A DNA stretch of 64,000 bases from the NCBI GenBank assembly GCA_017654855.1, contig CM030337.1, positions 2,914,001-2,978,000 on the forward strand. Reading direction: 5' to 3'. Below are positions 33,001 through 64,000 of this stretch, in pieces (within the stretch, counting starts at the first letter, position 1; each line of letters starts with the position of its first letter). Made by a program: the position numbers and the translations under genes. Source of the stretch: Podospora anserina. Lineage: Eukaryota. The notes beneath the pieces were generated by a model. The model was not told the DNA's origin. It saw only the letters and a list, made by a program, of their open reading frames with translations, and did not search any database.

Positions 33001-33865
33001 TTTTCTGGACTCGCTATCCAGACGAACAGCAGTGCCATCCAGTATTATAAACGTTGCATCTCCCTGGCTGAACGACTGCGCTTCTAAACGCCTATGTATT
33101 GCTGTCTTGGGTCTCCTAAGACATCAGCATAATGGCTTACCGCAGGAGATGCTGCAGGGCATCGCAGCGAGGCTCGAGGATCAGGACGCGGACGTACGGG
33201 AGGCAGCAATCGACGCGCTTCAAGGGCGAGCCGACCTTCCGAAGGAAATACTGCAGGGCATCGCAGCAAGGCTCGAGGATCAGGCCGCGTACGTGCGGCT
33301 GAGAGCAATCAACGCGCTTCAAGGGCGAGCCGACCTTCCGGAGGAGGTGCTGCAGGGCATCGCAGCAAGGCTCGAGGATCAGGACGCGTACGTGCGGCTG
33401 AGAGCAATCAACGCGCTTCAAGGGCGAGCCGACCTTCCGGAGGAGATGCTGCAGGGCATCGCAGCAAAGCTCGAGGATCAGGACACGGGCGTGCGGCGAG
33501 CAGCAATCGTGGTGCTTCAAGGGCGAGTCGACCTTCCGGAGGAGGTGCTGCAGGGCATCGCAGCAAGGCTCGAGGATCAGGCCGCGTACGTGCGGCTGAG
33601 AGCAATCAACGCGCTTCTAAATCAAGCAGAGTTATCGTTAAACGTCCTCAGCCCATATGTCAAATCCTTTTGCAAGGCTTTACTACGGAAGAGCTTCGAG
33701 AAGCATCTATACTGGCACGCTTCGGACCGTGGTTTTATAGGGGTTAATCTTACACATATTTCTTTAAGTGGTAGTCAACATGAAGGGAAGGAAGCGGTGA
33801 AGCTACTGTTACAGAATGGCGCCACTACCGTAGCGATGGAGACAGACAGCCGCTACTACACTTAG
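30042..33865 (+). CDS. Fungal NLR: SesB-like alpha/beta-hydrolase + NACHT + HEAT repeats
   Basis: DIIAIHGL and GVVFLATPFRG. Intron 31029-31078 joins in frame to LVNKYSATL...HVMMNKF. Walker A GRAGVGKTT, Walker B LFILDGLDE, IITSRP, HFIHLTFQEYFAARY, then five 33-aa HEAT repeats. Confidence 0.92.
33137..33620 (+). repeat. Five near-identical 99-bp coding repeats (HEAT)
   Basis: CTGCAGGGCATCGCAGC recurs at about 33152, 33251, 33350, 33449 and 33548. Confidence 0.95.
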
Positions 33866-41247: not shown

Positions 41248-42558
41248 TTGCCATGGAGGTCCCGATACCTCACACTTGTTGTCATTCTGGCCTTTCTCGT
41301 TGTTTTTGTTCTGATCCTGAACATATCCCTTGTGTCAGATACTTGCGACATCGCACACATGTCTGTGGATCCAACCCCATGGACCGCTGAATGTGGTACC
41401 AAAAACGGCTGCAACATGGTAATCGCAAGATTCGCTTCAGCACAGTGTGAGGGTCTGGCGGGCGACGAAGGAAAGAAGGCCTTGGTCATGTTTGGCGATC
41501 TCACCTTTACCAGGGATGATAGCCTTCCAAAAAGCATCTCGGACTGCTGGGACAAGGGCGACATGATCCGTCCGTTCCAGTCCAAACTGCACAAGTCAAC
41601 GCTATTCTTGTGTAGGCCACCTTATGACATCAAGAACATCAGTCTGGTGCGAAATGGAACCAAGATTATTGAGACCGCCGACCTGGAGGAACCAGAAGCG
41701 CAAAGAACTTTGAGTACGATCAAGCCTCTGGACCTCCTGTCGACTCTTCTGAAGAGCTTTGAGACAAACCATCTCGAGTTGGCCTACAGAATGCACGGAC
41801 ACGTGATAGAGGTTGGGGGTAGTAACATTAGCGTGGACAAGGTGATGGGGACCCTCCTTCTATATCGGCATGGTCTCCATCAGAGCCAAAAAGCTCTCGA
41901 GTTATACGATGGTCATGTTATTAAGCGAGCGGCAGCAGAGTTCTATCGGCAATTTGGCGCCATGCTGGGCAAGTTATTGCTTCTGGAGCCCGCCTCGATA
42001 AGCTCTTTTTGGTCTCTCTCCATCAATGACGACCATCTGGTTATTCGGGCATGGGCTGCACATTGGATGACTGGCTTGACTGCGACCTGCATTGCGTTGT
42101 GCGCTGTGCTCATTTTTCTTCTCCCTAAAGGAAGAATACTGCCTTGCAACCCAACAAGTCTTGCCGGGATGGCAGCACTCGTCTCTCACAGTCAGGACTT
42201 GGTTGAGAGACTGAAGTTCTCCGCGGCAGCAAGGGACAAAGCACTTGAGCGTCGTCTCCACGACACATCGTTCAAGCCGGTGGTGATTGACGGTGCTGGA
42301 TCAGGCTGTGAGAGGTTCGTCATTCCGGTGGGGCATCTTGGTGATCCGGATAAGATAGGGGAGGTGGCAGAGGCGATCAAGTATCAGTATGGGATTATCC
42401 AGGCGCAATACTTGGCGGTGCAGCTTGTTCCGGCTGGTGAGACAAACGTGACGCTGTCGGGGGGTGGATGGGGACGCAGTGGGTTGGGATGGGGGGGAAC
42501 GGGAGAGGGTGCTGGGGAAGGATATGAGGTTTTGGTTGGGGTGGGGGGGTGTGGTTGA
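41248..42558 (+). pseudogene. Probable internally deleted DUF3433-like membrane protein remnant
   Basis: Long ORF starting at TTG with PWR..YL + TM helix, LFLCRPPY, LVIRAWAAHWM + TM and PCNPTSLAGMAALV, decaying into G-rich sequence. Family by recall. Confidence 0.4.
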
Positions 42559-43889: not shown

Positions 43890-43977
43890 AGAGCTATTTC
43901 TGGAGTGCAGCTATTTGGTTTGGCAGGTATTATGATAAGGATCTTCTTCCTTTGTAGTCGGAAATAGCTTCTATATG
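43890..43977. repeat. Dispersed repeat, copy 2 (matches 26765-26853)
   Basis: Direct-orientation match seen by eye. Confidence 0.8.
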
Positions 43978-44001
43978 TACGGGGCGCATCAGGGTGCAAC
44001 A

Positions 44002-45792
44002 TCATTCTCCTTCCTTTCGGTTTGAACCCAGTCTCAAAATCTCTTGGCCGGACTCTTGCTTTTCTTGCTGGAAACGGTGGTCAGTGATGTGTTCCTGATC
44101 CATACTGTATTCCTTGATGGTAAACTGTGACAACATGGTCACGCCTGCCAGACCGCACATGGTCGCCCAGATAACTTGGAAAGTACGGACAAGGGCGCCT
44201 CTCAACGCCATCGCCAACGGGGACCCCGAGGGCATGTTCTTCATCATGGATGCCAGCGTTACGGCTCCAATATTTGCAATGGCTGGTGGCAGCAGCGAGG
44301 CAATTTCTGGTTGCTGGAGTTCCACCTGCATGTGATTTTCTAGAATCGATCCACCGATGGCCACGCCGACCGCTTGTCCGAACGAGCGGAAGAAGAGAAC
44401 CAGCGTTGCGGCCGTGGCCACGTCTGCGGGCGGGACCGAGGCTTGCAGCGCGAGCGTGATGGACGGGAATAGGATCCCCATGCCCAGCCCGGACACGGCA
44501 GTGAGGAAGATCCACGCCGGGATGCTGGTGTCGGCGCCCAAGAGTATCAGGAGCCCGCAGCCCAAGGTTGCTAGCACCCAACCGCTCCAGACAGCCCAGC
44601 GGTAGCGGCCGGTCTTGGACACGACCACGCCGACGAAGATGGCGCATGGAACTACCGTCGCGGTCTGGGCGAGGGCGGCGACGCCTGCAATCAGCGGGCT
44701 GTAGCCCAGGACGGCTTGGAAATACTCGGGCATGTAGTACACGAGAGAGTAAAGGATGAGCCCGTGAACGAAGCTGCCGGCGTATACCGCCGTTGTTGAG
44801 TAGTTCCGGAATATGTAGACGGGGATGAAGGGCGTGGACGTGCCGTAGCACTCGAACACAGCAACACCCGCCATGCCCGCAGCACCAAGACACAGGGGGA
44901 CGAGCGTGTGCCAGCTGCTCCAGGGAAACTGCGAACCCCCCAGGGTCACCGATACAAGGAAAGCCGTGACGGAGGCGATGAAGAGGGTCGAGCCGAAGTA
45001 GTCCAGGTTCCGCAGCCTGGCCGTGGTGTCACCGCTCGGCCGGGTAAGCTTCAGGAAGAAGCCAATACCAAACAAGCCGAGTCCGACGACGGGAAGGTTG
45101 AGCCTGCCGAGTACAAAGGTGAGCATGTAGTCGAAGTACACAGGGCCATGTACGAACGCAGCTCACCAGAATATCCATCGCCACTGGCCTGCTTCAGCAC
45201 AAGCACCACCAATAATGGGTCCGGTAGTGCTGCCCACGGCCCAGATGGAGCTGATCAAGGCATAAAGACGAGCGCGCTCCCTAAGAGGCGCTAGATCGGT
45301 CACCAACACGGTGGTGAGACCAAGCACTCCGCCGCCGCCGAGCCCCTGAACGGTCCGGCCGGCGATCATGACAGTAAAGTTTTGGGAGACGGCACAAACC
45401 ACGGAGCCGGCGGCAAAGATGACCAACGCCAGCATCAGAACGGGACGGCGGCCAAAGACGTCGCTCAGGGATACCCAGAGGAGCAACACAACGGTGCAGG
45501 CGAGTAGGTAGGATGTCCCGGCCCAGAAGGCCTCGGTCTGTCTGTTGCCATCGCCGCCGATGGCCGCGGATATTGCCTGTCCATGTTGTGTCAGCCCGGT
45601 GTTCACATCGTTTCTACTTGTGGGGGAGAGGTCGGAACGCACCGGCAGGGCGACAGAGAGGGACGTGGCGTCCAAGGCTGCGGCGAGATTAGTCAGGGCT
45701 ATGGCCCAGAAGGCAAGCCAGAAATGGAGCCCCGGCCCACGCCGAGTGTCGGCCCTGTCGAACTCATTCACGTTGGTGTCGACGCTGGCCAT
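44002..45792 (-). CDS. MFS drug:H+ antiporter (DHA2-like, 3 exons)
   Basis: AALDATSLSVALP, LSDVFGRR, GRTVQGLGGGG, WRWIFW/LNLP, GGSQFPWSS. Introns near 45578-45643 and 45104-45164. Confidence 0.93.
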
Positions 45793-46101
45793 TTGGGAAG
45801 ACTGCCACGCCGCGTGAGGTTAGGCAGAGGGTTCCAGAAAGGATCGGAGCGAGCCAGAGCAGGCGATGGTCTCTAGTACGCCTCACTGGGTATATTCACA
45901 GGAAAGCACGCTCGTCGGCAGCAGGATCCAAGGCAAGGGCAACGCGGAACTAGACTCCCGGTGGGTAAAATTGCCCTGCGTTACAGTTGGTTCAGTCGAA
46001 AAGCCACACCGGTGGGCCACTGCATCCACGCACGATAAGTCACCAGTCGAGCGGGCGTCATCGCAGTCCCGACTCGGCCTTATCAGCGACCCACGTTGGA
46101 T

Positions 46102-46232
46102 CGGAAGTCCGATGTTGACACATGTTCGGAAGTCCGACCGCTTAGCGCTGACACCTTCCTGCCGACCTATGGACGGAAGCCGGGGCCGAATTCTGCCTGT
46201 CCACGGCAATTTGGCCGCCGGGCGGCTTCCGG
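46102..46232. promoter_or_regulatory. Clustered CGGAAG(T)CCG motifs, putative Zn2Cys6 sites in the MFS/P450 divergent promoter
   Basis: CGGAAGTCCG at 46102 and 46127; CGGAAGCCG at 46174 and on the minus strand at 46223-46231. Confidence 0.5.
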
Positions 46233-46387
46233 CATCGCTGCGGATGTTGTCGTCCCTTACTTGGACTTCAAACCTGTTGGAAGGCCCAGACCATGCCGCA
46301 TGCCCGAGCCCCTGGCATCGACACATTTGCCGTCTTGGTCTCTCGACTGTCATCAGAATCCTCTGCTCTTACCCAACAAGACCTTAG

Positions 46388-48102
46388 ATGAACCGAAACG
46401 ACATCGAGATGCCATACCCAATCTACTACTACGTTGCCATTCTTTGCATAGCTGCTCTCTTCACCCGCTCGCTCTATGCACGAATTAGTCTCTTCCAGCG
46501 CAAGCGGCGCTTCGCCCGCAAGCACGGCTGCGCGCCTGTGACGCGAGCGCGGGCGTGGGATCCCCTGCTTGGTCTCGACCATTTCGTCCGCCTAGGGAAG
46601 GCCGCCGCGCAGCGCCGGTACCTGGAATACTGGCGGAAGAACATGTTCGGGAGGTACGGCAACACGTTCGAGATCAACCTCATGGGCCAGCGCCTGCTCT
46701 TCACCAACGAGCCGCGCAACATCCAGGCGGTGCTGGTGACGCAGTTCCCTGACTTTGACATCGGCCAGCGGCGGCGCGACAACTCGGCCCAGCTGTTGGG
46801 CGTGGGCGTCTTCAACGCCGACGGTCCCACGTGGGAGCACGCTCGCGCTACCCTGCGTCCAAACCTCACGCGGGCTCAGGTGGCCGACTTGCAGCTCTTT
46901 GAGAAGCATGTCGGCGTATGGATGGCGGCCCTGCCCAAGGATGGCCAGGCGGTGGATATGCAGGAATGGGCTTTCCGATTTGTAAGCTGTTGATGGACAA
47001 CCCACTCGAATTCATCTCGGCACGTCCTTTGCTAACATTGGCCACAGACTCTGGACGTGGGAACCGAATTCTTGCTCGGCACATCTTCCGGCGTACTTGA
47101 TCCTCAAGCCACGGCTTTGGGCCGCCGCTTTGCCTGGGCCTTTAACCTCGGGGTGGACGGAGTGGCGCAGAAAATCCGCCTCGGAAGCCTGGCACCGCTC
47201 TACTACAATGCCGACTACGGAAAGGCCTGCAAGATGGTGCACGAATACGTCGACCCCATCGTGCTTGCAGCGATCGAAGCAACCCAGAAGACCGGGTCTG
47301 AACAACACAGCAACGTCGGAGACGAAAAGCGGTACACCTTCCTTGCCGCTCTCGCCAGCGAGGGTATCAGCCCGAAGAAGATACGTGACCATGTATTGAA
47401 CATACGTAAGTAGCACTTACAGGGCATCTGCGTGTTTATTTGGAATTGTCCGACCTGACCAACCTCTCAGTCATTGCTGCGCGCGATACATCGGCCTGTC
47501 TTATGAGTGCCGCCTTCTTCGAGCTCGCAAGACAGCCCGCCATCCAAGCCAAGCTCCGAGCCGAGGTCGACAGACAGCTCGAAGGACGGCTCCCCCGCTA
47601 CGACGACCTCAAAGACATGACCTACCTCAACTGGTTCATCAAGGAGGCCCTGCGCCTGTACCCCCCAATCCCCATGAACATCCGCGTAGCGAACAAGGAC
47701 ACGATCCTCCCCGTGGGCGGCGGTCCCGACGGCTCGGCGCCCATCTTCGTCGCCGCGGGCCAAGAGGTCGTGTACCAAATCTTCTCGACACACCGGCGGA
47801 GGGATCTTTGGGGCGAGGACGCCGACCAGTTCCGCCCGGAGCGGTGGGAGACGATCCGCCCGCACTTCCAGTACCTGCCCTTCAACGGGGGTCCCCGCAT
47901 ATGCCCTGGCCAGCAGTTTGCGCTGCTGGAAACGAGCTTTGTCCTCGTGCGGTTCCTGCAGGAGTACTCGCGGCTCGAGGCGCCCGCAACCTCGCAGCAG
48001 CCCTGGACCGAGAATTACACCTTGACCTGTTCGGTGGGACAGGGTTCGTGGGTGAAGCTGATGAAGAGGGGGGGTGAAAAGGGGTCAGAAGTCTCGGCTT
48101 AA
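46388..48102 (+). CDS. Cytochrome P450, CYP52-clan-like (3 exons)
   Basis: N-terminal anchor, [12 protein letters not shown]-helix [22 protein letters not shown], heme motif [10 protein letters not shown]. Introns 46982-47047 and about 47406-47470. Confidence 0.95.
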
Positions 48103-48412
48103 TGAGGTAATCTCGTAGCCAGCAGAAGTGTAGTTGATGCAGCTTAACAAGGCCAGCATTAGCTAGACTACTGCTTAGAACAGAATGGAGTGTATTAGGA
48201 GGGACATTTGCTGGCGGACCTCCATAACGAACGGCCATGCACGGTGATGATAATCGAAAGGGCTTAGATACATTCAATTATCTGTGATTATGCTCAAGTT
48301 ACATTCGCAACTTTTATCTGCAGGGCCAAGTGCAGTGCAAAGAGATGGAGAGTCGCCCCAGGCTAAGTACTTGGGCCGGCAGGCCAAGCATCACCGACAA
48401 CCGGTCAGTCCT

Positions 48413-48820
48413 TCAAGCCCCCTTGTCGTCTCCAAAGACTGCCACCGCGAGGAAAGCGGCAAGACACAGCGAGTGCAACACCAAATGCACAGCCGGCCCT
48501 CCCAACGCGGCGCCTTGTCCTTCGCTGTCGCCTTGTACCTTGTACTGTAGACGCGCGAGAGCACGATGGATGGGCCAGGCGTGATAAGTGCCTAGAGCCG
48601 CAGCGAGAAGTCTCGTGCCGCAAGAGGGTGGCTGGTGGTGGAAGATGGCGACCAGACAGACGAGGTTTGTTGAGAGGAGAAGCCCGCCGTACTGGCGCAA
48701 AATCAGCTTCGCAGCCGCGGAGCAGTCGGGCAGTTGTTGTTCCGGTCGGAAGATGAAGGACGCGGCTGCGGCTGTCTCGATGAGAAGATGGAAGACGAAT
48801 GGAAGGGTTTGGGAGGCCAT
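48413..48820 (-). CDS. Small multi-pass membrane protein of unknown function (135 aa)
   Basis: GCCATGG start, about four hydrophobic segments with embedded His/Glu/Tyr, inside the cluster. Confidence 0.65.
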   Translation of the reverse strand: MASQTLPFVFHLLIETAAAASFIFRPEQQLPDCSAAAKLILRQYGGLLLSTNLVCLVAIFHHQPPSCGTRLLAAALGTYHAWPIHRALARLQYKVQGDSEGQGAALGGPAVHLVLHSLCLAAFLAVAVFGDDKGA

Positions 48821-48939
48821 GGCGTCTGGGCAGGACGGGGGTTGGAAGGGTGGGACAGCAGTAATGAGGGTTGCCAGGACCGGATATTGAGGGTGCAGGC
48901 GAACCGGACATAAGAGACACAAGACAGTCTAGTCTCCCT

Positions 48940-49932
48940 TCACAGCTTTGACTCGCCATTTAGTTGCGGCAGAGACTCCCCCATCCAGCAGCCTTGGATG
49001 GCACGCCAATATTTGGTCGCGTCCTCGGTGACGAGTGCACAGTGGGGCGCCTCTCGGAAGAGCACAAGCCCAACCTCACATCCAGCTTCTCGCGCGAGCT
49101 GGGCATGGGATTGGACGTCAGCGGGTCCCACCATGCGGTCAGCACGGGAGAAGAGATAGAGCCGACGGGCGGCGGTGCCGAACAGGGTTGGCTTGTTCAG
49201 CTCACGCCGCATATCGTTGACTGAGGACATGAAGCCGGCCTTTTGCAGCGCCGTGATGGTGGCCACAGCCGCGAATATGGCAGCCGTGCCGAGAGCTCGG
49301 ATGGGGGCCGAGCTGGTAGCGGGCAGTGACAAAATCGCCGCATTGAAGGCCTTGGCGAATGAAGTGTCGCCCGGGCAGCAGTCGAAGACAATCTGGCGCA
49401 GGTGGTCGCACAGAAGCGTGCCGGCCACCTCGGATATGGACAGGGCCAGTTGTATTGCCGTATTGCAGCCGCCGTGGGAAAACATGTGGAGCAGGGCCTG
49501 AGGAATGACAAGATTGGTGGTGCCGGACTCGGTAGTCCGAGTTGTCGTCGGCGGCGGCTGCAACGCCTTGATGATGGCGTCTCGGGCTGGCCGCAGCCGA
49601 GAACGGACGGCCGCAAACGAGCGAGCCGAGATATCGGCAAAGACTGTACGGACCAAGACAAGGGTCGCACCGGGAAATGCTTTCCGGTAGCCCTCGACGT
49701 ATTTGGCGACCCGTGGCGTGGTCGCGCCCCCAAGCCACGTGCAGAGAATGATCAGGGACGGCGGCGGGCATCCGCTGGCGCTGCCACTACCACTGATCTT
49801 GTCGTGTGCCGCTGACGGGACACTGGGTTCAAACAGGAAAATGTTGTTGCCCAGAGGCACCAACGGAGTTGGAGGTGCTGGCAGTGGTCCCTCTGGGCTG
49901 CCGTCGTCGCCCTCCGTGTGCGGGAGTGTCAT
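48940..49932 (-). CDS. DUF829/PaxU-like alpha/beta-hydrolase-fold protein
   Basis: LIILCTWLGG, AKYVEGY, HMFSHGG, IVFDCCPG, RLYLFSRADRMV, APHC. Confidence 0.85.
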   Translation of the reverse strand: MTLPHTEGDDGSPEGPLPAPPTPLVPLGNNIFLFEPSVPSAAHDKISGSGSASGCPPPSLIILCTWLGGATTPRVAKYVEGYRKAFPGATLVLVRTVFADISARSFAAVRSRLRPARDAIIKALQPPPTTTRTTESGTTNLVIPQALLHMFSHGGCNTAIQLALSISEVAGTLLCDHLRQIVFDCCPGDTSFAKAFNAAILSLPATSSAPIRALGTAAIFAAVATITALQKAGFMSSVNDMRRELNKPTLFGTAARRLYLFSRADRMVGPADVQSHAQLAREAGCEVGLVLFREAPHCALVTEDATKYWRAIQGCWMGESLPQLNGESKL

Positions 49933-50077
49933 GGCTGTTGTGGCACGCCGGCTGGGATGGTTGACGGTTGATGGCTGATGGATGTGTAAGGGAATAATCG
50001 CGAGTCTATGAGTGTGTGTGCAGTGGATGTTTTTGTTTGTTGGAGCTATTCTTAATTACCGGCCTTGGATGATGTTG

Positions 50078-50145
50078 GTCCTCAACAAAAAGATCCGAAC
50101 CCTAACCCTAGCCCCAACCCTAAGTCCTCAACAAAAAGACCTGAA
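50078..50145. repeat. Interstitial telomere-like tract (about 4 CCCTAA units) between direct repeats
   Basis: GTCCTCAACAAAAAGA at 50078 and 50124 flanks CCCTAA CCCTAG CCCCAA CCCTAA. Confidence 0.75.
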
Positions 50146-50462
50146 GCATGTAGATCAGACTCTGCAGAATACCTTCCTCATTCGTTGACTCGGCGATCGA
50201 TTGGTCACTGTCGTCAACCCGTGGCACGTTTGGCTTCGTTTTAAAGCAGAACGTGACGTATTGGGTGTCGAATGGTACTAAGAGTGACTACCTACTAATG
50301 GTGGTATTTCAAGTAACTACCAGGTAGCGATTTCATTTGGTAACCGGGCCAGATACAAGTGACACTGAGTAGTACGGACTGCAATCGTGTAAGTTGGTCT
50401 TGATTCCTCCTACACACAATTGCTGGGTAAATAACTAGTGCTCGCAAGTATGTCCATATCAT

Positions 50463-51811
50463 TCAAACACCGTCGCCCGCCCGGCACCGTTTGAGTAAAG
50501 ACATTTCAATAGCCAAGCCAGGGCCAAAAGATGTCGCAACAACATGATCCTTGCCGCGGCCCATCTTCCGCAGCAGGTCCAGCACTGCCAATACAGTTGG
50601 ACTGGATGAGTTGCCCCGCGTCCTGTATATCTCCCGAGTAGCCCGCAGCTGTTCGCTTGTCAAATCCAGCATCTCCTGCGCCCCTTGGATGATGGCCTCT
50701 CCGCCCGGGTGCAGAGCCCAGTCGAAGTCGGCCACATCGAGACTCTTCAGCCTCGTCTTCTCCCGAAACCCCGGCAGCAGGTCCCTGAACATGGGCCCGA
50801 TGGCCGTCTTGGTAAATGAGGGCACATCACGGGTCAATACAGTACGGAACCCGGTGCCTTCGGCGTAGAAGGCCATGTGCTGCATCGTGTCCGGGATAGT
50901 CGCGTTGTCCCACTCGAGCAGCTGGAATAGCGGCTCAGCCCGACCCGAGTCCCCGCCGCCGTCGTCGTCACCGGCGTCGTCCTGCGGTAACAGCAGCCCG
51001 GCGTCGTTGCAAAGCACAAACGCGGCGGCGCCATCGGCAAACAACACGCCCGCGATGCTCACGTCGGCCGGGTCTGCGCAAGCCGCGGCCTCGGCCAGGT
51101 CGTGCCGCACGTTGGGCGTGCACAGCTCACACGCGAAGGCCAGCACACGCGCCGGCTTGCCCCGGGACGCGGCGCCGCTGGCGACCTGGGCCGCCGCGCG
51201 CATGATGGCCAGCCCGCCGGCGCAGCCCACGCCGTGCAGCAGCATGCGATCGACCGTGTGCGGCAGGCCCAGGCGGCGCGCCACTAGAAGGTCGTAGCCC
51301 GGGTTGCCCTGGTTCGTGCAGGTCACGGCGATGGTGTGCGTGATGTCGCAGGGCCGGCCGCCCCATTCTTTCAGCGCCTTGCGGCATGCCTGCGCGGCGA
51401 GGTCGACGCCTGCCCGGCGGTAGAATTTGTCCAGATCAGCAAGGGTTGGGGCCTCCGGGCGGCTGGCGAAACCGGTTTGGTAGTCCCCGATGGAGGCGCG
51501 CGTGTCGATACCACTTGTTTTGTTGATCTGGAGGAGCTTTTTCAAACTATTGCCAACCACAGCATGTCAGCACGGCTCAGAAGCGACAGAGTCAAGCGGG
51601 GAATGGATTCGACCTGCACCACTTACCCTGGCTTCTCCACGTCAAAGAACCTCTTCGCAAACTCATCCAACTTCTCTGGCCCTAGGAGATATGGAGGATA
51701 TTGGGAGGCAATCCCCGTGATCCAAAGTCCTGGCATTGGCGGCGTGGCATGAGTGCCGTTGGCCCCATTCGTTTCACTCTTTTCACCCATTTGAGGTGCC
51801 ATCACTGCCAT
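50463..51811 (-). CDS. Type III polyketide synthase (chalcone synthase-like, 2 exons)
   Basis: LWITGIASQYPP start; catalytic Cys (GVGCAGG), His (ALHPGG) and Asn (RGNSSS); SFGPGLAIE. Intron about 51549-51625. Confidence 0.96.
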
Positions 51812-52573
51812 GCCGAGACTGTCTGTGGAGTGCGATGGAATCGACGAGGCGCGTTAGAGATGTTGATGTTGGTAGCTTGGGAGGCGTATCGTCTTTAGGG
51901 ACAGTTATGAGTGCAAATACCTGCAGGTCATTAGCAGTATTAGGCAAGCATTTCGCAACTGAGTCTGCTGGCGTTGGACCACTAACAGAATGGCCGCTGT
52001 GATGCCCAGGAATCCCGTCCGTCCGGAGGAGCCAGCACACCATCACGCCCGGCAGACTGGCTGTTTCGGTGCTGAGTGGAACAGCCGAACAGGCAACAAT
52101 CCGACAAAGTCGGTGCCGTATCGGTGATCCGACTTATCGGTCTGTTGGCTGCGGGTTGCGGTTTGCGGATTCCCGACGCGTGTCTGCGGCGTGCTGCGTC
52201 AGAACCATGAAGCGTCCTTTCGACGCCGATGGGCTTACCGAAGTCTACGGAGGATTGCCGGGTGCACCAAGATGAATATGCCACGTGCAAGCGTGACATC
52301 CGGCCTCGCTGGGTTCGGAAGCCGGATTAGGGGAACAGACCAAAGGAGACATCCCGAGACGACGGATGCCACTATAAGGCTATTGATATTAATGCCATGT
52401 CTGGTATGTAGACGGGAGACTGTAGGCTGCTGCTTACTTGACTCTTTTGTTTAGCGTTCCGTACCTTGCACATTCGTCGAAGCTTTGTAACTCTTGCCTT
52501 ACTACTACACAGCCTAGCAGTTACTTAGCACTCGTCGCCATACCTTCGCTTCTCGGTGCTTTCTACAGGAGCC

Positions 52574-55500
52574 ATGGCCGACCTGAGGTTTGAAGATCAA
52601 CCCGTGTCTCAGGAAGGACGAAATGGCCGAACCAATGGCACTGGCATTGTGAATGGGGACCACCATCCGACGTCTGAAAGGACCACAAACGGAGACTCGG
52701 TGAACGGCCATCCCCATGGCAACGGCCTCTCGACTGGGAGTGGTCTCCCCAATGGCAGCAAAACCCAAACCCAACCGCCGGTCGAGCCTATCGCCATCTG
52801 TGGCATGGGCATGCGACTCCCAGGCGGCATCACCGATGCTGCAGGCTTCTGGGACATGCTCTACAACGGACGCAGCGGGCGGTGTGAGGTTCCAGAGGAC
52901 CGATACAACGCCGAGGGCTGGTACGGCCCAGGCAAGATTGGGCACACAGCCAGCAAGTTCGGCTATTTCCTCGACAACGTCAACCTGGCCAACATGGACT
53001 CCTCGTTCTGGTCCATGACCAAGAAAGAAATCGAGGCCATGGACCCGCAGCAGCGACTGACGCTCGAAGTCGTCTACGAGTGCCTACAGAACGCTGGTCA
53101 GAAACCCGACCAGCTCCGAGGGAAGAAGGTCGGTGTGTACCTCGGCACTTTTGAAGGCGACTGGCTGGAACTCGACGGCCGCGATCCTCAGCACTACCAC
53201 ATGTACCGCTTGACGGGGTACGGCGACTACATGTCGGCGAATCGTATCCACTACGAGTTCGGCTTCATGGGCCCAAGGCAAGTTGTCACAATACAACTGC
53301 TTCGTTGGGGGTGAGCGAGGTGACTAATTCCTCTATAGTGTCACCATCAGGACAGCCTGCTCGTCGTCGCTGACGGCACTCCATGACGCCTGCCACGCCA
53401 TTTTCTCCGGAGAGTGCGAGTCGGCCATCGTGGCATGCGCCAACGTCATCTGCTCGCCGCGGACGACCATCACCATGCAAGAGCAGGGCGTCATGTCTCC
53501 GAGTGCTCTCTGCAAGACATTTGATGCAGACGCCGACGGCTACGCCCGCGGCGAGGCCGTCTCGGCCATCTACGTCAAGAAGCTCAGCGACGCCATCCGA
53601 GATGGCGATCCGATTCGGTCCGTGGTCCGGTCGACTGCTGTCAATGCCGGCGGCAAATCCTCGACGCTCACGGCTCCGAACACGGCTGCTCATGAGGCTC
53701 TCATCCGGCGCGGCCACCAGCTGGCGGGCATTTCCGACTTTTCTAAGACAGCTATGATTGAGTGTCACGGAACCGGAACTGCTGTACGTGTATCCATGCG
53801 AGTGTGGTATTGGTGTGATATGATGCTTATTCCGCCGTTCAACATCTAGGTCGGGGACCCCATTGAGACACTCGCGGTGGCCAACATCTTTGGAGATTAC
53901 GGAATATACATTGGATCGGTGAGTAAACCTCCGCATTTTGATAGCTTTGCCTGGCAGAATCTGATTGAGGCAGGTGAAAACAAACCTGGGGCATAGCGAG
54001 GGAGCCTCGGGTCTTTCGAGTCTGATCAAGATGACGTTGGCTCTGGAGAACGAGACGATTCCGCCCAATCTCAACTTCACCACGCCAAATCCCAAAAGTA
54101 AGACACCAGCGCCCCAACCGTCCAAACCGCTTCTTTCTAACCATGTATGTTGCAGTTCCGTTCAAGGAGTGCAAGCTCACAGTCCCGACTGAGCCCCGGC
54201 CCTGGCCCAAGGACCGAGACCATGTTGTTGGAGTCAACAGTTTCGGAATAGGGGGCTCTAACGCTCATGTAAGAAACAATGGATAAAATACACGCTGCAA
54301 CTCAGACACTCACCTGTATCTTTATCCAATCAGGTCCTACTCTCGTCCGCTTCCTCGTTCGGAGCTGCAAATGCGACGGCACACAAAGGCGATGTCGAGG
54401 CCTTCGATGCCGACCCCGGCTTGCGCCTGCTTCTCTTCTCCGCCAAACACCCCAAAGCGCTCCAGTCGATGGTGTCACAGCATCAAGCCTACCACCTCTC
54501 TCACCCGTCACAGCTGCGCGACATGAGCTTCTCGCTGGCCCTAAAGCGCGACGCCCTGAGCTACCGGGCATTCTGCGTAACAGATGGACTGGACGACTGG
54601 ACGCCAGTTGTCTCGCCCCGCCCGGCTTCTCGCGAGCCGTCGAAGCTCGTCTTCGTCTTTAGCGGGCAGGGGGCACAGTGGGCGCAGATGGGCATGGCGC
54701 TGATCAAGAATGTCCCCGAATTCAGACAGAGCCTCCGAGACATGGACAAGTTCTTGCAAACACTTCCCGACGGCCCGCAGTGGAGTTTGATTGGCAAGTC
54801 ATGACTAAGTTGTACCCCGAGTCCCAAGTTCCCAAGTACTAACACGCTGCATAGACGAGATTCAGGCTCCCAAGAGCCGCAGCCGCATTTCCTCAGCTGA
54901 ACTGTCACAGCCCTGCTGCACCGCTATCCAGATGGCGCTCGTGGACCTTTTGACGAGTTACAATGTCACGCCAGGCGCTGTGGTCGGCCACTCGAGCGGT
55001 GAGATTGCCGCGGCGTATGCCAGCGGCGCCATAACGGCGAACGAAGGTATCGCAATTGCGTACTACCGAGGCAAGGTCATGCTCTCGGTAGATTCGACAA
55101 AAAAGCCAGGCGGCATGGCTGCCGTGGGCCTCGGGCGCAAGGAGGTCGAGCCGTATCTCAGCAGCGGCGTCCTGATCGGCTGCGAGAACAGCCCTGAGAG
55201 CACAACCCTCACTGGAGATAAAGACGCGCTGGAAGGGGTCATGCTGAATATCAAAGAGGCGAACCCGGACATCTTGGTTCGGGCATTGCAGGTTGACCGG
55301 GCATATCATTCTCGTGAGTAATCCCTCGTTCCCCCCTCGCCTGGTTCTCTTTGTGCATACACCAGCACAAACCAGCCTCTCGGGGCACCTTCACGTTTGC
55401 TAATAACATGAACAGATCACATGCGACAAGTGGCACCGCTCTACGAAGAGCTCCTCAGCAACATGATCAACGCAAACGACCCCAACATACCGTTTTACTC

Positions 55501-58500
55501 CACTGTCTCCTGTAAAACAGTAAAGAGCGGCAGGGAGCTGGGGCCAGAGTATTGGGTCAACAACTTGGTCTCGCCCGTTCGTTTCTCCACCGCCGTCAGC
55601 CAGATCCTGCGGGAGCCGGGGCGCAAGACGTTTGTCGAGATCGGGCCGCACTCGGCGCTGGCCGGTCCACTGCGCCAGATACTCAAATCCGCCAAGTCCA
55701 CCGACGAGTACATGAACATCCTGACACGCGGGAATAACTCCCACTCTGACCTGCTCCATGCAGTGGGCCACCTGTGGTCCGCCAACCAGCCCCTACATCT
55801 CGCCCCGGTTGTCGGTGAAGGTAAATTCCTCGTGGACCTGCCGCTGTACCCCTGGCACTACGAAGAGCCCATGTGGTACGAGAGCCGCCTGGCACGAGAG
55901 TGGCGCCACCGGAAGTTCCCGCACCATGATGTGCTGGGCTCCCGGATTCTGGAAAGCACCGATTCCAGCCCGGCCTGGCGGAACCTGCTGCGGCTTGAGT
56001 CGGTGCCCTGGATCAAGGAGCATGAAGTCGCTGGCGACATCGTCTTCCCCGGCGTGGGCTACGTCACCATGGCGGGCGAGGCTGTGCGGCAGCTCACGGG
56101 CGCCACCGACTTTACGGTTCGGCGTGTGCACATCAAGGCGGCCATGATCCTAGTCCAAGAAACCGCGACGGAAACCATCACACAGCTCCAGCGTGTGCCG
56201 CTGACCAACTCGGCCGACTCGGTCTGGTACAACTTTACCATCTCCAGCTACCAGAACGGCAGCTGGCTGAAGCACGCCTTCGGGCAGGTCTCGGCAGGCT
56301 CCGAGTTCCCGCACGAGGCCCCCGATCTGGCGCCGTTGCCGCGCGTGGTTTCGCGAAAGGCCTGGTACCGTAAACTGCGTTCGCTTGGGCTCGAGTACGG
56401 GCCCCGGTTCCTCGGACTTAGGGACATCACTGCCAACCCCGTAGAGCCAACGCTGCTGACGCACATGACAAACGATATCCGCGACGGAGAGTCGCTCTAC
56501 GCCATCCACCCCGTGACGCTGGATCTTGTGCCACAAGCAATAGCCCCGGCATTGACCAACGGCCTGACCAGGCGGTTTGACCGGGTGGCCATCCCCACGT
56601 ACATTGACGAGATGTACATTGGACCCCCGGCAACACCAGACATGGCCATGGAGGTCCGCATCACCGAGGAGCGCAAGAATGCGCGCATTGCAGATGCTGT
56701 TGCCGTGTCAGACGGCAAGGTAGTCATCTCGGTGAAGGGCATGCAGGTGTCCGTCATCAGCGACGCCGAGGGCGACGGCGGACAAGACCCCCACGCGGCT
56801 GTCGAGCTCGAGTGGAAGGAAGACGTGAACTTGATGGACATCACCACCCTCATCCGCCCGGCAAAGGACCGGCATGACGTCCACAAACTACTCGACAGGT
56901 TCTCAGCGCTGTGCATGCTCGACGCCGCCGAGCGGCTGCGGGTCGTCGAACCGTCCAGGCCCCATCTCGCGCACTTTCGACAATGGCTGGACGGCCTTTG
57001 CGTTGACATCTTGGGTGGCCGCTACGGATGCTTGTCTTCTCAGCAAAGCGATGTCGACATGTCCCCGGCTCGCCGCCAAGAGACGGTCGACACGCTGTAC
57101 GCCCAGCTCTTGGACACGGAGGCGCACGCAGCGGCGACGGCCGTCTACCGCATCGCCAGCAACTGCGACTCCATCTTCAGCGGTACCACGGACGAGCTGG
57201 CCCTCCTGCTCGAAGACAATGTCCTCCACCAGCTGTACGATTTTATGCAGAATTCGGAGTACTCGGCGTTCCTTGATCTAGTGGCTCACCGAAAGCCCAA
57301 CCTCAGGGTGCTGGAGATTGGCGCGGGCACCGGTGGGACAACGGCGACCGTCCTGCCCGCTCTCAAGTCTGCTTATGGCGAGCGCATGTACCTGTCGTAC
57401 ACCTACACTGATGTGTCCCCGGGCTTCTTCCCCGCGGCCAAGGAACGCTTCAAGGAGTATGAGGGCCTCCAGTATGCCGTGCTGGATATATCCAAGGACC
57501 CCCTGGAACAGGGTTTCGATCCTGAGAGCTTCGACCTTATTATCGCCTGCAATGTAAGTGACAGACCACAGCCACAGTGATGGTGGTGGAAGAGGGAGTG
57601 CTAATATCGATGCCATCGCTAGGTCATGCACGCAACACCAAACATCCACGAGACCCTGTCCAACGTCCGCAAGCTCGTCCACCCTCGGGGGAGGCTGTTC
57701 CTGCAGGAACTTTCTCCAGGTAAGTAACCACATGTTCCTAGACGTGATGACATCAGTCACTAAATACTCGGCTTGCAGAAACCAAATGGATCAACTTCGT
57801 CATGGGCGTCCTGCCGGGCTGGTGGCTCGGTGGCGCCGATTTGCGGTTCCCCGAGCCGTACATGGACAGCGCCCGCTGGGACACAGAGCTGCGCGCGGCA
57901 GGCTTCGCTGGCGCAGAAGCAGTCGCATACGACGGCTACCTCAACAACAACATCATCACCACGCCCGCCGCACCGCAGCCACCACCCTCGAAACGAGTCA
58001 CCCTGCTCCATTCGGGAGAGACCACTACCACCACCACCATAGCCGTCATTGCCTCTCTTCGCGCCCAGCTCCAGCTCTCCGGCTACCAAATCGACCTGCA
58101 CACCCTCGACACCCCGTCCCTCCCAGAAAACCAAGACATTCTCGTAGCACTAGACCTCACTGAACCCTTCTTCCACAACCTCACACCGCGCCGGCTTGCC
58201 TCCTTCCAGGAGCTGGTGCGGCAGGCGCGCGACCGCGGCTGCGGCGTGCTGTGGCTCACGGGCGCGAGCCAGGTCGGCTGCGTGGACCCGCGCTTTGCGC
58301 CCGTGGTCGGCGTGGCGCGCGTGCTGCGCACGGAGACGGGGTTGGATTTTGCGACGCTAGAGTTGGATTGTTTGGGCCAGGTCGATGTTGAGTTTGGGGC
58401 CGTGCCGGCTGTGTTGGCCGAGTTTCAGCGCCGGGGGCCGGAGGAGGAGGATGTCAGGTCTGAGGCGGAGTGGGCGTGCGTTGGGGGGAGGGTGCTGATT

Positions 58501-61207
58501 GGCCGATACCACTTTGTTGATGTCGCAAAGGGGATTACCACGGCGGGTGATGGAGAGGGTGGGCCCGCGGAAAAGACGGTGCTGAAGCTGGAGCAACATC
58601 GTCCTGGTCTGGTGAATACGCTATTCTGGGAGCGGAGAGCCGAGACGGCGCTGGGGGAGAATGATGTTCGGGTTGAGGTGCAGGCTGTTGGGCTGAATTT
58701 CAAGGTAAACATGGCCTCGTCTTTCCCGCCCCTTTATTTCTTTCTTTCCCTATGAGCCGCTTGCTAGGTTGTTTGGCAACTTCCCTTACCTCCCTCACCC
58801 AACATACACCCCGTGAAGGCCAAGCTGACAGCATTATTACAGGATGTCCTCGTCTCGCTGGGGATTGTGGCCGAGCCCTACTCCATCGGGCGCGGCATGG
58901 GCTACGAGTGCAGCGGCACCGTGACAGCCGTCGGATCCAGCGTCACCGAGCATCGTGTCGGCGATCGCGTCATTGCCAGCTCGAGCGGGTCGTTTACCAC
59001 TTCTCTGCAAGTGTCAGAGACGCTGTGCGTCAAGATGCCAGATACCCTGACGTTTGAGGAGGGTGCCTCAATGCTCGCCGTTTATTGTACCGCTATATAC
59101 TGTCTCCTCGACGTCGGTCGCCTAGCAAGGGGCATGGTAAGTCAGCCCAGTGATGATTGCGTGCTTCTCACAGCCAATACTAACAGACGTCTTTAGTCGG
59201 TGCTTATTCACTCGGCCACGGGTGGTGTTGGTATCGCGGCTATTGAAGTTGCCAAGATGATTGGCGCTGAGGTACGTGTTGGAAACGCCTCCATGTCCGG
59301 GGTCGTCGACATTGAAAACTAACAAAGTTACGCGGCGCAGATTTACTGCACCGTCGGCAACGAGTCAAAGGCCGAGTACATTGTGGACCGTTTCCACATT
59401 CCGCGCCATCACATCTTTAACTCCCGAGATGCGTCTTTCCTTCCCGCACTGCTGAAGGAGACCGGAGGGCGCGGCGTCGACGTTGTCCTCAACTCCCTGG
59501 CAGGTGAGCTCCTGCACGCGTCCTGGAAGTGCGTAGCCAAGTTTGGCACCTTTGTCGAGATTGGTCGCCGCGATCTTGTCGGTCAAGGGCTGCTGGCCAT
59601 GGACGTGTTCGAGGCGAACCGGGCATTTGTTGGCTTTGATCTACTGCGCTTCTCCACTGAGCGACCCCTGATGATCAAGAGGTGAGTGGACTCGACGGCA
59701 GTGAGCCTGGCACTTGCTTTTGAACTGTACTGACGCCTCTAAAAGCCTCATGGAACGCGCCCTTGCCTTCTACACGCAAGGACATCTACGCCCCATTTCC
59801 CCCTTGACAACCCTGCCCGCCACCGCCATATCCGACGCCATTCGGTTCATGCAGAAGGCTCAGCACATGGGAAAGATCGTGGTCACTATGCCCGAGAATC
59901 GCAACGAACTCGTGTCTGAGGCGACCCGCAATCCGATAGTGTTGCGGAGCGATGGTGCGTATCTTCTCGTCGGCGGTCTGGGTGGCCTGGGTCGCGCCAT
60001 CACAACTTGGCTTGCCGAAAAGGGGGCTAGACATTTTGTCTTCCTGTCCCGGTCAGCCGCGTCTGTTTCTGACCATGACCCTTTCGTCCTTGAGCTTGAA
60101 GCTCTGGGCTGCACGACCGTAAGGGTATCAGGCGATGTGTCCAACTATGAGGATGTGTTACTGGCCATCAAGGCAGCGGGAAGGCCGATTGCTGGTGTGC
60201 TGCAGGCATCCATGGTCCTCCGGGTATGTTGCCTCCTATCTACTTACTAATAGTGCCAATGGGCGCTAACGTTTATTGTGCAGGACAACAGTCTGGTCGA
60301 TATGTCGTGGGACGACTGGGTGACGGCGTCCCGGCCCAAGATCCAGGGCACCTGGAATCTGCACAACGCACTCGCCCGCGAGCAGGCCGAGCCACTGGAC
60401 CTGTTCTTCCTCTTCAGTTCCGCTGGCGCCATGAGCGGGCAGTGGGGCCAGGCCAACTACAACGCCGGCAACACCTTCCTCGACGCCTTCGTGCAGTACC
60501 GTCACTCGCTCGGGCTGCCGGCCAGCGTGCTCAACATTGGCGTCATCGGGGACGTGGGCTATGTCAGCGAAAACACGGACGTTCTTGACTCACTACGGGC
60601 CACATCCCAGTACATCATGGAAGAGCCCGCGCTGCTAGACTGTGTCGAGCTCATGCTCCAGCGGTCGGCGGCCCGAGCGACGACGCCGGCCGCCCCCGGC
60701 GGTGATGATGCCATGTACCGCTATGCACAGCCTTCGCAGATGGGTATCGGCATGCGCTCCCTGCTGCCCATCACGGCACCCGCCAACCGCACCGTCTGGC
60801 GCAAGGACCCGCGGATGCTGGTGTATCGCAACCTGGAAGACACGGGCGGCGCCGGGTCGGGCGGCGGAGCGTCGTCGTCGGACGAGGAGCTGACGCGGCT
60901 GCTGCGGGAGATCAGCTCTAACATGACGCTGCTCCGGTCGGCAGATACGGCGGCGCTGATCGCACGCGAGATCAAAAATACGCTCCTCGGCTTCATGATG
61001 CGGTCCGAGGACGAGCTGGACCTCGACGGCCCGCTGGCGTCGGTGGGCATTGACTCGCTGATCAGCATCGAGCTCCGGAACTGGATCCGTCGACGGCTTG
61101 GGGCCGAGGTTACTGTGCTGGAGATTGTGCGCGCGCCGAGCTTGAGGGAGCTGGGCGCGACGGTGCAAAAGAAACTCGTGGAGAAGTACGAGGCGCGGGT
61201 TGGATAG
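52574..61207 (+). CDS. Highly reducing type I PKS (KS-AT-DH-MT-ER-KR-ACP), multi-exon
   Basis: KS TACSSSL/HGTGT/GHSEG; AT GHSSGE and [49 protein letters not shown] and [16 protein letters not shown]. No release domain. Confidence 0.97.
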
Positions 61208-61705
61208 GAGTTGTAGATAGAGCACCACATGGTGGGAGTTTTGGTTGGTTTACTTTGTCAGTTTTCATGAGCACGCTTTCTCGTTTTTTCGGGCCATATC
61301 GGCCATCGACACACTGGTGTTTGAGGCACATTCAAAGACCTTAGAACCTCTAGATGGGTGCTCACAAGGGGCACTCTTCGTGGATACAAGCTGGAAAACC
61401 TTGTTTGGAGAGGGGGACTGGCACAGAAGAGGGTTTTCACCCCCTCAAAACCGCCACCGGGACTACCCAACGGCTTGACATAGGTACCTGTGTACATCGT
61501 CATGTATAGCTAGTGTACGTCTGGTACCTATCATTAAATGGATTTTTCGAGCGATCTCCCGCTTCGTGGGGGGTCGCCTTCGGCAAATAAAAGGTCACAA
61601 CAACAACGCTTTCTCGTTCGTTTCTCAACGGTGGTTGATGATTATTATATCTCATCATTGTTTGCACATCTCTATTTCTAGATCTTATCTTGTCTGGATC
61701 CGAGT

Positions 61706-62911
61706 CTAATATTGCTTCAATGCGCTTCTAAGCTTGTCTACAAGTCCCATCACCACCGAGCGCTCCGCGGGCACACTGCGAATACCTTCATCCAACATGC
61801 CAAAGGTGGGCCACTGAGACTCTGCTTCCTGCCCCCCAGAAGAAGTGGGGTCCTTCTCGGTGAATATTAGTTCAATCTTCATCGAGATGTCGGTAAAGAC
61901 ATGCTCGGAAGCATCGAGCACCATCTCGGCCTGCAGCCGCTCACTCCCGTCGCCGAGACAGACTGACCCCAGCTGCACGCGGGGGAACAGGCGCGACAGC
62001 GGCCTCTGCGAGATGGTGCTGCCCTCGTCGAGAATCCGCTGGAGGCACTCGAATACGTTGCGGAAGATGGCTGCCAGGCGCGAATAGCACGAGAGGAAGA
62101 GCAGGGCCGTCGCCGGATCATGGGCCGGCGCCGACTGGCGGAGGATACTAAGCAGCTGGAGCGCTATTCGCAGCGTTTCCTCCAAGTTCAAGTAATCGCT
62201 CTGGCGGCCGTCATACGCCTGGGCTTCTGGCAACTCCCGCAGTGCGTGGATGGACTCTGCCGTTGCTTCCTGCTGGTTCACCAGAAGAATGTTGAGGCGG
62301 GCGAGCTCGTGGACCCGAGCATCCAGGCCGGTTGTCCGGCTTTGTCGGTGCCCAAGTGCTTGTTCGCTATCGTTCATTGTGCGGTCCATTTGGCTCGCCT
62401 GGCTCCCCTCAGCTTCACTCACCGAGGCATTCTGGAGCCCACCAAGCTGAGGCTTGCCGCCCAATGCCGTCGGCACCTCTGTGAGATGGAAGAAATCTTG
62501 GTACAATAGCGGATTGATAGGGGAGGAAATGTCAGATCCGCTCAGCCGTGGCCACGAGTCCATGGCCTGGAGCATACGTGAGTCGAGCGTATCGAGAGTG
62601 CCAAGACTGGACGAGTCCAATGCCTCGATATTATCAGGCGGTGTTGTTGAGCTGGTAGTGCCGCCCATGCTTAGATCCATGACCGGCAGAGTGGAGCCCG
62701 TCCCTTGGGTTGGATAAACGGCATTGTTTAGATTCGCCGTCGTACTCGCAACCTGCTGGCTCCGCCGCGAGGGACGAGGGGAGCATTCGGCCTGGGCCCG
62801 GATGCACCGGTTGCATGCTCTCTGGTTGGGAGCCCTCCTGCAGCGCAATTTGGAGCTGTGACACCGGTGGCAGGCAGGCCACCTGGTATGACCATCGCTG
62901 TCGTCGTCCAT
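61706..62911 (-). CDS. Zn(II)2Cys6 transcription factor, likely cluster-specific
   Basis: ACHRCHSSKLRC-RRAPNQRA-CNRCIRAQAEC binuclear cluster, convergent with the HR-PKS. Confidence 0.92.
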   Translation of the reverse strand: MDDDSDGHTRWPACHRCHSSKLRCRRAPNQRACNRCIRAQAECSPRPSRRSQQVASTTANLNNAVYPTQGTGSTLPVMDLSMGGTTSSTTPPDNIEALDSSSLGTLDTLDSRMLQAMDSWPRLSGSDISSPINPLLYQDFFHLTEVPTALGGKPQLGGLQNASVSEAEGSQASQMDRTMNDSEQALGHRQSRTTGLDARVHELARLNILLVNQQEATAESIHALRELPEAQAYDGRQSDYLNLEETLRIALQLLSILRQSAPAHDPATALLFLSCYSRLAAIFRNVFECLQRILDEGSTISQRPLSRLFPRVQLGSVCLGDGSERLQAEMVLDASEHVFTDISMKIELIFTEKDPTSSGGQEAESQWPTFGMLDEGIRSVPAERSVVMGLVDKLRSALKQY

Positions 62912-64000
62912 GGCCCATGTGTTATTGCTGAAGCTCGGGATATTATTTGCTTGCTCGTAACAACGAATCGGGCCGGAGGTGAATATTGGAAAGGATTTCC
63001 GGTAATGTCGCCAATAAGGGCGGATCTCACACGGTTACTAGCATCTTATTAACCATGGGCCCCAGGGCCCGGTCTGTCAGCTTGGGGCATTCTTATATGG
63101 GTCGGAGATAGGCCGGCGTAGCCACAGGCTACGGCCCCAAAGCTCGCTTCTACGCCCTACAAGGTCGTTGCATGACCTTCACCGGCACCAACTGTCGAAT
63201 TCTATTGGAAGAGAGTGGGTTTGCGAAGGCGCAGCCCAGAGCCAACTACCAATTGGAAGGTCCAGCCTATCTAAGCCTATCGTACGGTCCAGTGGCTGCA
63301 GTTGCTGCTCTCGCTACACAGCCAACGTACATATCAATGCTGTGCCATGTTACCTTGCATGCTTACTTTAAGTCAGCGAGCGGAATCTCTGCGTGCAAGA
63401 TTCTCCTTTGGGGTTTGAAAGCTGATCGATGTGGAACCCGCACCTTTTCGCGTATCCTTTATCACTCATCACACCAATATTCTTTTACTTTGCCACTTGT
63501 ACACCGTTATGGATCCTCAAACCACCTTTGCTCTGGATGCTTGCAGGACGGTACCTTCCGTGGCCCGTGGGATTTGATAACCCTTTCAAGTGAAGGCGGC
63601 AACTCCGAGGTGAAGGAAACTATGGAACTGGCACCGGAAACTCAGATGCAGACACATCCATCAATGGCGCCAACCCTTATAGGAATGAAAAGAAGATTGG
63701 CGAGGCTATCAAGCAGATCGGCGTCCGCATGGATAAGAGCTTTGTCAAATGACCCTTGTACAGGTACCGACGGGCAAGGGTTTGCGGTGGCCTAGTTGAT
63801 TGAGACTTGAGAGGCTGGTCCAATTAGTATACTTTACGCTGGTGTTCAGGGGTAATAGGGGTGCGGGACCTTGGCTGTGTGTGGCCTCGTGGATTTATTG
63901 TTACCTGTAGCGGAAGAAATATTGGAGCAAGAGCACGCCGCTCCTGTTACGTCTTTGCCAATCACAATTCGAAAGCCACGGGGCTACATGTTATCTTGAT

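Follow-up and report, generated by a model that had tools for sequence, protein, structure and literature searches.

At positions 44002 to 62911, the window analysed here, a stretch of 64,000 nucleotides from chromosome 6 of Podospora anserina S mat+, contains a cluster of seven genes, among them those of a type III polyketide synthase (PKS) and of a highly reducing, iterative type I PKS (HR-PKS). The cluster runs from the stop codon of a major facilitator superfamily (MFS) transporter gene at 44002 to the ATG of a putative regulator gene at 62911 (Table 1; all positions are those of the window). The gene models were derived from frame translations, splice signals and homologues, with the first intron of the HR-PKS set by an RNA joint, and, once spliced, each of the seven genes yields a single open reading frame. 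Two pairs of genes are divergent: the MFS and cytochrome P450 genes are separated by 595 bp from start codon to start codon, and the two PKS genes, on opposite strands, by 762 bp. The original prediction, made from the letters of the window alone, had described a complete hybrid cluster of seven genes in this arrangement, with two divergent pairs, catalytic motifs in place and no frameshift, and the spliced models bear out all of these points.

Table 1. Genes and intergenic region of the P. anserina cluster (window positions)
Feature	Position	Strand	Description
MFS efflux transporter, DHA2/TRI12 type	44002-45792	-	3 exons, 553 aa; Pfam MFS_1 and TRI12
Cytochrome P450	46388-48102	+	3 exons, 527 aa; Pfam p450, heme motif
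Small predicted membrane protein	48413-48820	-	single exon, 135 aa; no named family
DUF829 (TMEM53-like) alpha/beta hydrolase	48940-49932	-	single exon, 330 aa; Pfam PF05705
Type III PKS (PODANS_6_7330)	50463-51811	-	2 exons, 422 aa; Pfam Chal_sti_synt_N and Chal_sti_synt_C
Divergent intergenic region between the two PKS genes	51812-52573	.	762 bp; presumed shared promoter
HR-PKS, iterative type I	52574-61207	+	15 exons, 2545 aa; Pfam domains
Zn2Cys6-like putative pathway regulator	61706-62911	-	single exon, 401 aa; Cys pattern

The cluster is transcribed. Sequence contigs were available from four runs of four different studies (among them X1, X5, X9 and X10), which were not recorded as RNA, but can be taken as RNA because the contigs proved to be spliced. 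Together, these spliced contigs cover all seven genes, and in X1 and X5 cover was found in each of the 30 bins of 43900-63100, although contig depth cannot rank the expression of the genes. Joints with GT..AG ends (CT..AC for genes on the minus strand) fit the first MFS intron (45577-45642; X1, X5 and X10), both P450 introns (46982-47047 and 47406-47470, both GT..AG) and the 80-nt intron of the type III PKS gene (about 51546-51626; three of the four runs, X1, X5 and X9), while at least 10 of the 14 introns of the HR-PKS gene were seen among the joints listed. The second MFS intron (45104-45166) was placed where contigs of X5 end (45103 and 45166), and the regulator gene is spanned by contigs without joints (61691-63048). 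All four runs differ from the window by a C>T at 51914, in the intergenic region of the PKS pair, probably because of strain variation.

The gene of the type III PKS is intact. Exon 2, used as a 355-aa query (50466-51530, minus strand), matches PODANS_6_7330 of P. anserina S mat+ at 100% identity, and the 422-aa PODANS_6_7330 protein maps back onto both exons, again at 100%. The motifs GCAGG at 169, HPGG at 341 and GNSSS at 373 align, as Cys169, His341 and Asn373, with those of the Neurospora type III PKS structure 3e1h (ORAS), so that the Cys-His-Asn triad of the family is present. The closest solved relative is the type III PKS of Aspergillus thesauricus (9hrb, E 6.6e-140), and Steely1 of Dictyostelium (structure 2h84, E 1.8e-36) is also a detectable relative. 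In Steely, both synthases are fused in one polypeptide, and the type I synthase hands its acyl product straight on to the type III PKS, whereas the two P. anserina synthases are encoded by separate genes.

The HR-PKS has the domain order ketosynthase (KS), acyltransferase (AT), dehydratase (DH), C-methyltransferase (cMT), enoylreductase (ER), ketoreductase (KR) and acyl carrier protein (ACP), according to Pfam (ER as ADH_N plus ADH_zinc_N, ACP as PP-binding), and it retains the conserved motifs, including GIDS. Pfam revealed neither a starter-unit acyltransferase (SAT) nor a product-template (PT) domain, KR and DH being present, and neither a thioesterase nor a reductase release domain on any of the exons. 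The stop codon falls about 50 residues past the ACP serine, and because of this no release domain follows the ACP; the lack of such a domain, which had been predicted, is thus borne out by the domain set as well as by the position of the stop. The first intron has the ends GC..AG (53278-53338, 61 nt), in agreement with an RNA joint (53275/53337) and with the Podospora comata protein, and its removal brings back the active-site motif of the KS and gives a product as long as that protein (P0121, 2545 aa). The two enzymes are about 99% identical, with 2511 of 2545 residues the same in a model that had an incorrect first intron. The methyltransferase motifs are conserved in ten relatives, which suggests that this domain is under selection, although activity does not follow from this.

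It should be noted that, within the KS region, a segment of 56 nt with CT..AC ends (54258-54313) is skipped in X1 and X9, which come from different studies; the canonical sense intron in its vicinity is 54269-54333. This joint is either the intron of an antisense transcript or a non-canonical sense splice that destroys the conserved GGSNAH motif.

That no metabolite has been linked to the cluster in the open-access literature might be taken to mean that it is a decaying or silent relic without a product. Seven intact reading frames, an HR-PKS of the same length as its P. comata counterpart and correctly spliced transcripts in four studies make such a state most improbable.

The remaining genes fit a biosynthetic cluster to varying degrees. 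The third exon of the P450 matches Pfam p450 with E 4.6e-45, and its closest solved sequences, the fatty-acid hydroxylase P450 BM3 and a carotene epsilon-monooxygenase (6l8h), both with E about 1e-25, hint weakly at hydroxylation of a chain. The transporter matches the NCBIfam model efflux_EmrB of the DHA2 type (E 2.2e-22). Membership of the Zn(II)2Cys6 family would be marked by the motif CX2CX6CX5-12CX2CX6-8C together with a Pfam Zn_clus match; the putative regulator has the spacing CX2CX6CX8CX2CX6C (CHRC-6-C-8-CNRC-6-C), beginning at residue 17 of a 404-aa read that starts three codons before the ATG, and its Zn_clus match (E 0.015, 15.9 bits) lies below the 21-bit cut-off, so that the Zn2Cys6 call rests on the cysteine pattern. 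A fungal-specific transcription factor domain was not found in it by Pfam. Homologues with 51-54% identity over about 430 aa are nevertheless located at the 3' end of the HR-PKS gene in two related loci from metagenomes (L001 and L009, see below).

The DUF829 gene encodes a plausible serine hydrolase, as judged from its conserved residues and predicted structure. The Pfam match (PF05705, E 1.3e-46), the predicted fold and the Ser-Asp-His residues all place the protein in the DUF829/TMEM53 group of alpha/beta hydrolases. In an alignment of 37 sequences, Ser152 (within FSHGG) and Asp265 of the putative triad Ser152-Asp265-His297 are invariant, and His297 is conserved in at least 90%. The AlphaFold model has a mean predicted local distance difference test score (pLDDT) of 86.2, and among the matches listed by Foldseek against the PDB all are alpha/beta hydrolases, the first being Ayg1p (E 9.4e-9, TMq 0.48), closely followed by a monoacylglycerol lipase, esterases and C-C hydrolases. 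Locus tags also place DUF829 homologues beside or close to the type III PKS genes of Pyricularia and Cadophora.

The small predicted membrane protein has no Pfam or NCBIfam match, and its single-sequence fold has a pLDDT of only 52.9. Its hydropathy plot contains hydrophobic stretches. Several lines of evidence together indicate that the hydrophobic frame 48820-48413 is a real gene: the G+C contents at the three codon positions (0.69/0.46/0.66) are those of this frame, the overlapping frame having only 0.46 at its third position; the ESM Atlas gives a score of 0.95, with 224 of 256 features shared with a cluster of 599 ascomycete members of about 130 aa that have no Pfam family; an intact homologue of 137 aa occupies the same place in the metagenome locus L011, with mismatches concentrated at third codon positions (11/5/33 at positions 1/2/3); and RNA contigs pass through the gene unspliced (for example, record 20 of X9, covering 48259-49144). 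The original prediction had treated this protein as part of the cluster and as a sign of a different product. The gene itself has proved to be real; however, it is intact in only one of three syntenic relatives (L011), and the protein is therefore an optional accessory of the cluster.

A second, arginine-rich open frame overlaps the small membrane gene on the minus strand (48405-48959). As a gene, this frame (48405-48806) was rejected in favour of the hydrophobic one. With it, a search against representative sequences returned one real match, itself a fused automatic annotation, and six low-complexity matches, and all ESM Atlas matches scored at most 0.76. Fused models in which a DUF829 protein carries an extension (Triangularia, Cercophora, Parathielavia and Dactylonectria; P0242-P0244 and P0249) read this arginine-rich frame, and they are ruled against by codon G+C content, by the third-position substitution bias, by the ESM Atlas and by unspliced RNA contigs (47471-50028). 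Some of these automatic models carry the name 'DNA repair protein'; the models look wrong.

The two synthases are inherited together. The match lists of the type III PKS and of the HR-PKS run in parallel, both ranking Colletotrichum first, followed by Diaporthe and then Aspergillus bombycis, and in at least four species common to both lists the two genes have adjacent locus tags (Colletotrichum jinshuiense EsH8_VII_000054/55, A. bombycis ABOM_000924/25, Oculimacula VTL71DRAFT_5654/55 and Chaetothyriales DV735_g511/512). Both enzymes are 77-86% identical to some Colletotrichum copies, and other Sordariales copies are more distant; the high identity between Podospora and Colletotrichum (80-86%) could reflect horizontal transfer of the cluster, and patchy loss is another candidate explanation of this distribution.

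A tree of the type III PKS was calculated from 72 named matches of 120 listed, with unnamed fragments and metagenome rows left out, and was rooted at its midpoint only, so that its split into halves of 32 and 40 rows (90% support in the Shimodaira-Hasegawa-like approximate likelihood-ratio test, SH-aLRT) should be read accordingly. The P. anserina enzyme belongs to an uncharacterised clade of seven rows (99% SH-aLRT), made up of three Sordariales sequences, its partners being Parathielavia and Corynascus, and four Colletotrichum sequences. This clade lies in the 32-row half, which also holds XylPKS (P0085), a relative of the scirpilin synthase FscB; XylPKS and its Fusarium relatives form a separate clade of four rows with 100% support. 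PspB, the type III PKS of the soppiline pathway, is found in the 40-row half. The P. anserina enzyme is 61% identical to PspB and 56% identical to XylPKS, and it groups with neither.

Beyond the two synthases, the gene set of the cluster recurs in relatives. Metagenome contigs were scanned with the DUF829 alignment, which yielded 64 loci. Three of these contain related cluster genes in an order that differs from that of Podospora. Locus L009 has the order HR-PKS, Zn2Cys6, DUF829, P450, MFS; L001 has the same order, with HR-PKS, Zn2Cys6 and DUF829 genes followed by a partial small membrane gene, a P450 gene represented by two of three exons and 91 aa of the MFS protein; and L011 contains DUF829, the small membrane gene, P450 and MFS. 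The P450 gene is thus linked in all three. In the metagenome loci the block from DUF829 to MFS lies on the opposite side of the PKS pair compared with Podospora, which indicates that the genes stay together through rearrangement, and the block moves as a unit. In 55 other loci, many of them too short to judge, the DUF829 gene stands alone, with the exception of L053, which has a Zn2Cys6-like match in addition, and L044, in which a 30%-identical DUF829 gene is accompanied by an HR-PKS, an MFS and a P450-like match.

Clusters of this type have been described in fungi before, and the P. anserina cluster is an uncharacterised member of the family. According to Navarro-Munoz and Collemare (2020, PMC6985275), type III PKS genes adjoin reducing PKS genes, often in opposite directions, and co-evolve with them in clades 7 and 8, the pairs being ancestrally linked and mostly accompanied by a P450 gene. 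The P. anserina locus resembles this family in its type III PKS with a Cys-His-Asn triad, in the adjacent reducing PKS gene on the opposite strand, in the co-inheritance of the two and in the linked P450 gene. Podospora curvicolla and Cercophora caudata are named as members of clade 7 in PMC6985275; P. anserina is not named in the main text of that paper, and its assignment to clade 7 is our inference from sequence relationships. The original prediction had called a relay from a reducing PKS to a type III PKS rare in fungi, which appears overstated in view of the ancestral linkage and co-evolution reported for two clades.

The first of the two characterised hybrid clusters is the soppiline cluster of Penicillium soppii (pspA for the HR-PKS, pspB for the type III PKS and pspC for the P450; MIBiG BGC0003032 as cited in PMC12559476), in which PspB takes the product of PspA as its starter and a P450 acts in the pathway (PMC6985275). 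The pairing proposed in the original prediction on the model of this pathway is supported by the HR-PKS without a release domain, the type III PKS and the P450, as with PspA and PspB. The likeness may extend further, since, according to PMC6985275, genes for an MFS transporter and a DUF829 protein may also belong to the soppiline locus. For that reason the DUF829 gene does not set the P. anserina cluster apart, and its use as a sign of a different pathway fails; it is instead a recurrent accessory gene of the family. The second characterised cluster, that of scirpilin from Fusarium scirpi (FscA/FscB; GenBank OR551244 as cited in PMC12559476), is named as such in a preprint of 2024 and in its Angewandte version of 2025 (PMC12559476), and is likewise a hybrid of type I and type III PKS; XylPKS, which is 77% identical to FscB (PMC12559476), stands in for FscB in our comparison and, like the P. 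anserina enzyme, falls in the 32-row half of the tree.

The shared core of HR-PKS, type III PKS and P450, together with the MFS and DUF829 genes reported at the soppiline locus, raises the possibility that the cluster is orthologous to that of soppiline (psp) or scirpilin (fsc) and yields the same compounds. This is improbable: the type III PKS, the only enzyme compared directly, shows the modest identities given above, and its 99%-supported clade is apart from PspB, which lies in the opposite half of the tree, as well as from the 100%-supported XylPKS/Fusarium clade. In addition, the Zn2Cys6-like gene and the small membrane gene distinguish the P. anserina cluster from that of soppiline. Near-identity to a characterised cluster, which would have counted against the original prediction, was thus not found, the type III PKS being 61% identical to PspB.

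Whether the type III PKS depends on its partner is less clear. FscB and PspB yield a product only together with their type I partner (PMC12559476 and the preprint). The version of 2025 (PMC12559476) adds PansPKS, an enzyme encoded in a hybrid cluster that includes a type I PKS. It falls in a similarity cluster from which no enzyme had been sampled earlier and shares no more than 59% identity with the active enzymes assayed until then. In a cell-free assay it accepted each of the ten acyl-CoA substrates, whereas the hybrid-cluster enzymes XylPKS, AlupPKS2 and CcauPKS had little or no activity. By the naming scheme of that paper, PansPKS is probably the P. anserina enzyme studied here. If so, it is doubtful that the type III PKS depends strictly on the HR-PKS, as the original prediction had implied. 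The two synthases might then work separately, with the type III PKS producing phenolic lipids from ordinary fatty acyl-CoAs and with the HR-PKS product being set free, as a reduced polyketide acid of its own, by an external hydrolase, possibly the DUF829 protein, a catalytically plausible serine hydrolase of the cluster. We regard this as unlikely, because the two genes are adjacent and co-inherited across many species (also reported in PMC6985275), because both characterised clusters of the family use a relay, and because promiscuity in vitro is compatible with a native starter that is bound to an ACP.

Thus, the locus is likely to be an intact, expressed biosynthetic cluster of P. anserina that belongs to the published family with a divergent pair of type III PKS and reducing type I PKS genes and that operates, by analogy, through a relay between the two. 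All chemical steps, as well as the product, are modelled on PspA/PspB and FscA/FscB. The HR-PKS would build a reduced, possibly methyl-branched acyl chain on its ACP and, having no domain to release it, would leave it to the type III PKS, which would take the chain as a starter, add malonyl-CoA units and cyclise the product to an alkylresorcinol, an alkylresorcylic acid or an alkylpyrone. The P450 would oxidise this product, probably on the alkyl chain, the DHA2-type MFS transporter may export it, and the Zn2Cys6-like protein may regulate the genes of the cluster. The relay logic of the original prediction is the best explanation of the gene set, but it is not new.

Several observations weigh against this view. 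No metabolite has been linked to the cluster and no paper on the product of the P. anserina locus was found in the open-access literature, in which, of Pa_6_7310 to Pa_6_7350, only Pa_6_7350 appears, where it is called a protease. If PansPKS is the enzyme of this cluster, the type III PKS need not depend on the HR-PKS in the way that PspB and FscB do (PMC12559476). The RNA contigs show that the seven genes are transcribed in the same samples, and the depth of these contigs is no measure of co-regulation. L009 lacks the small membrane gene, for which there is no room, and in L001 this gene has decayed, with an internal deletion and no in-frame start. Lastly, the DUF829 gene is not bound to the pathway, because genes of the same clade sit in a housekeeping context with no PKS nearby: L002, L003 and L006 carry DUF829 genes with 63-64% identity that fall within the 100%-supported clade containing the copies of L001 and L009, the neighbour in L003 and L006 being PGAP1 (glycosylphosphatidylinositol inositol-deacylase), with a pyridoxal phosphate-dependent enzyme of Cys/Met metabolism (Cys_Met_Meta_PP) in L006 as well, and no PKS, P450 or MFS match was found within the flanks of 3 to 10 kb of these three genes.

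The surroundings of the cluster differ from it in base composition. G+C is 57-61% over the cluster (44001-62000) compared with 45-57% in the 22 kb upstream (22001-44000), where it drops to 44-46% at 24-28 kb and at 34-38 kb. The upstream region contains a DUF6601 gene (28278-29291, minus strand) and an NLR-like gene with NACHT and HEAT-repeat domains (31079-33862), and an open reading frame of 477 aa (41125-42555) adjoins the MFS gene; this frame matches no Pfam family, and the syntenic loci contain nothing that corresponds to it.

Only two fungal pathways that combine a type I with a type III PKS have been worked out, those of soppiline and scirpilin, and nothing in the P. anserina cluster would overturn current understanding. 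There is a fairly small chance that the block of DUF829, small membrane protein, P450 and MFS genes encodes a step that is absent from both of these pathways; for example, the DUF829 protein, the top structural match of which is the polyketide-shortening C-C hydrolase Ayg1p, might trim or off-load an intermediate of the HR-PKS or of the type III PKS, and the scaffold made by the Sordariales/Colletotrichum clade would then be a phenolic lipid unlike soppilines and scirpilins. P. anserina is a model organism that lends itself to genetic work, and transcripts of the cluster are already present in laboratory samples, which makes the cluster a convenient system for learning the product of a third branch of the family, the way in which a chain is passed on by an HR-PKS that lacks a release domain, and the role of the recurrent DUF829 protein.

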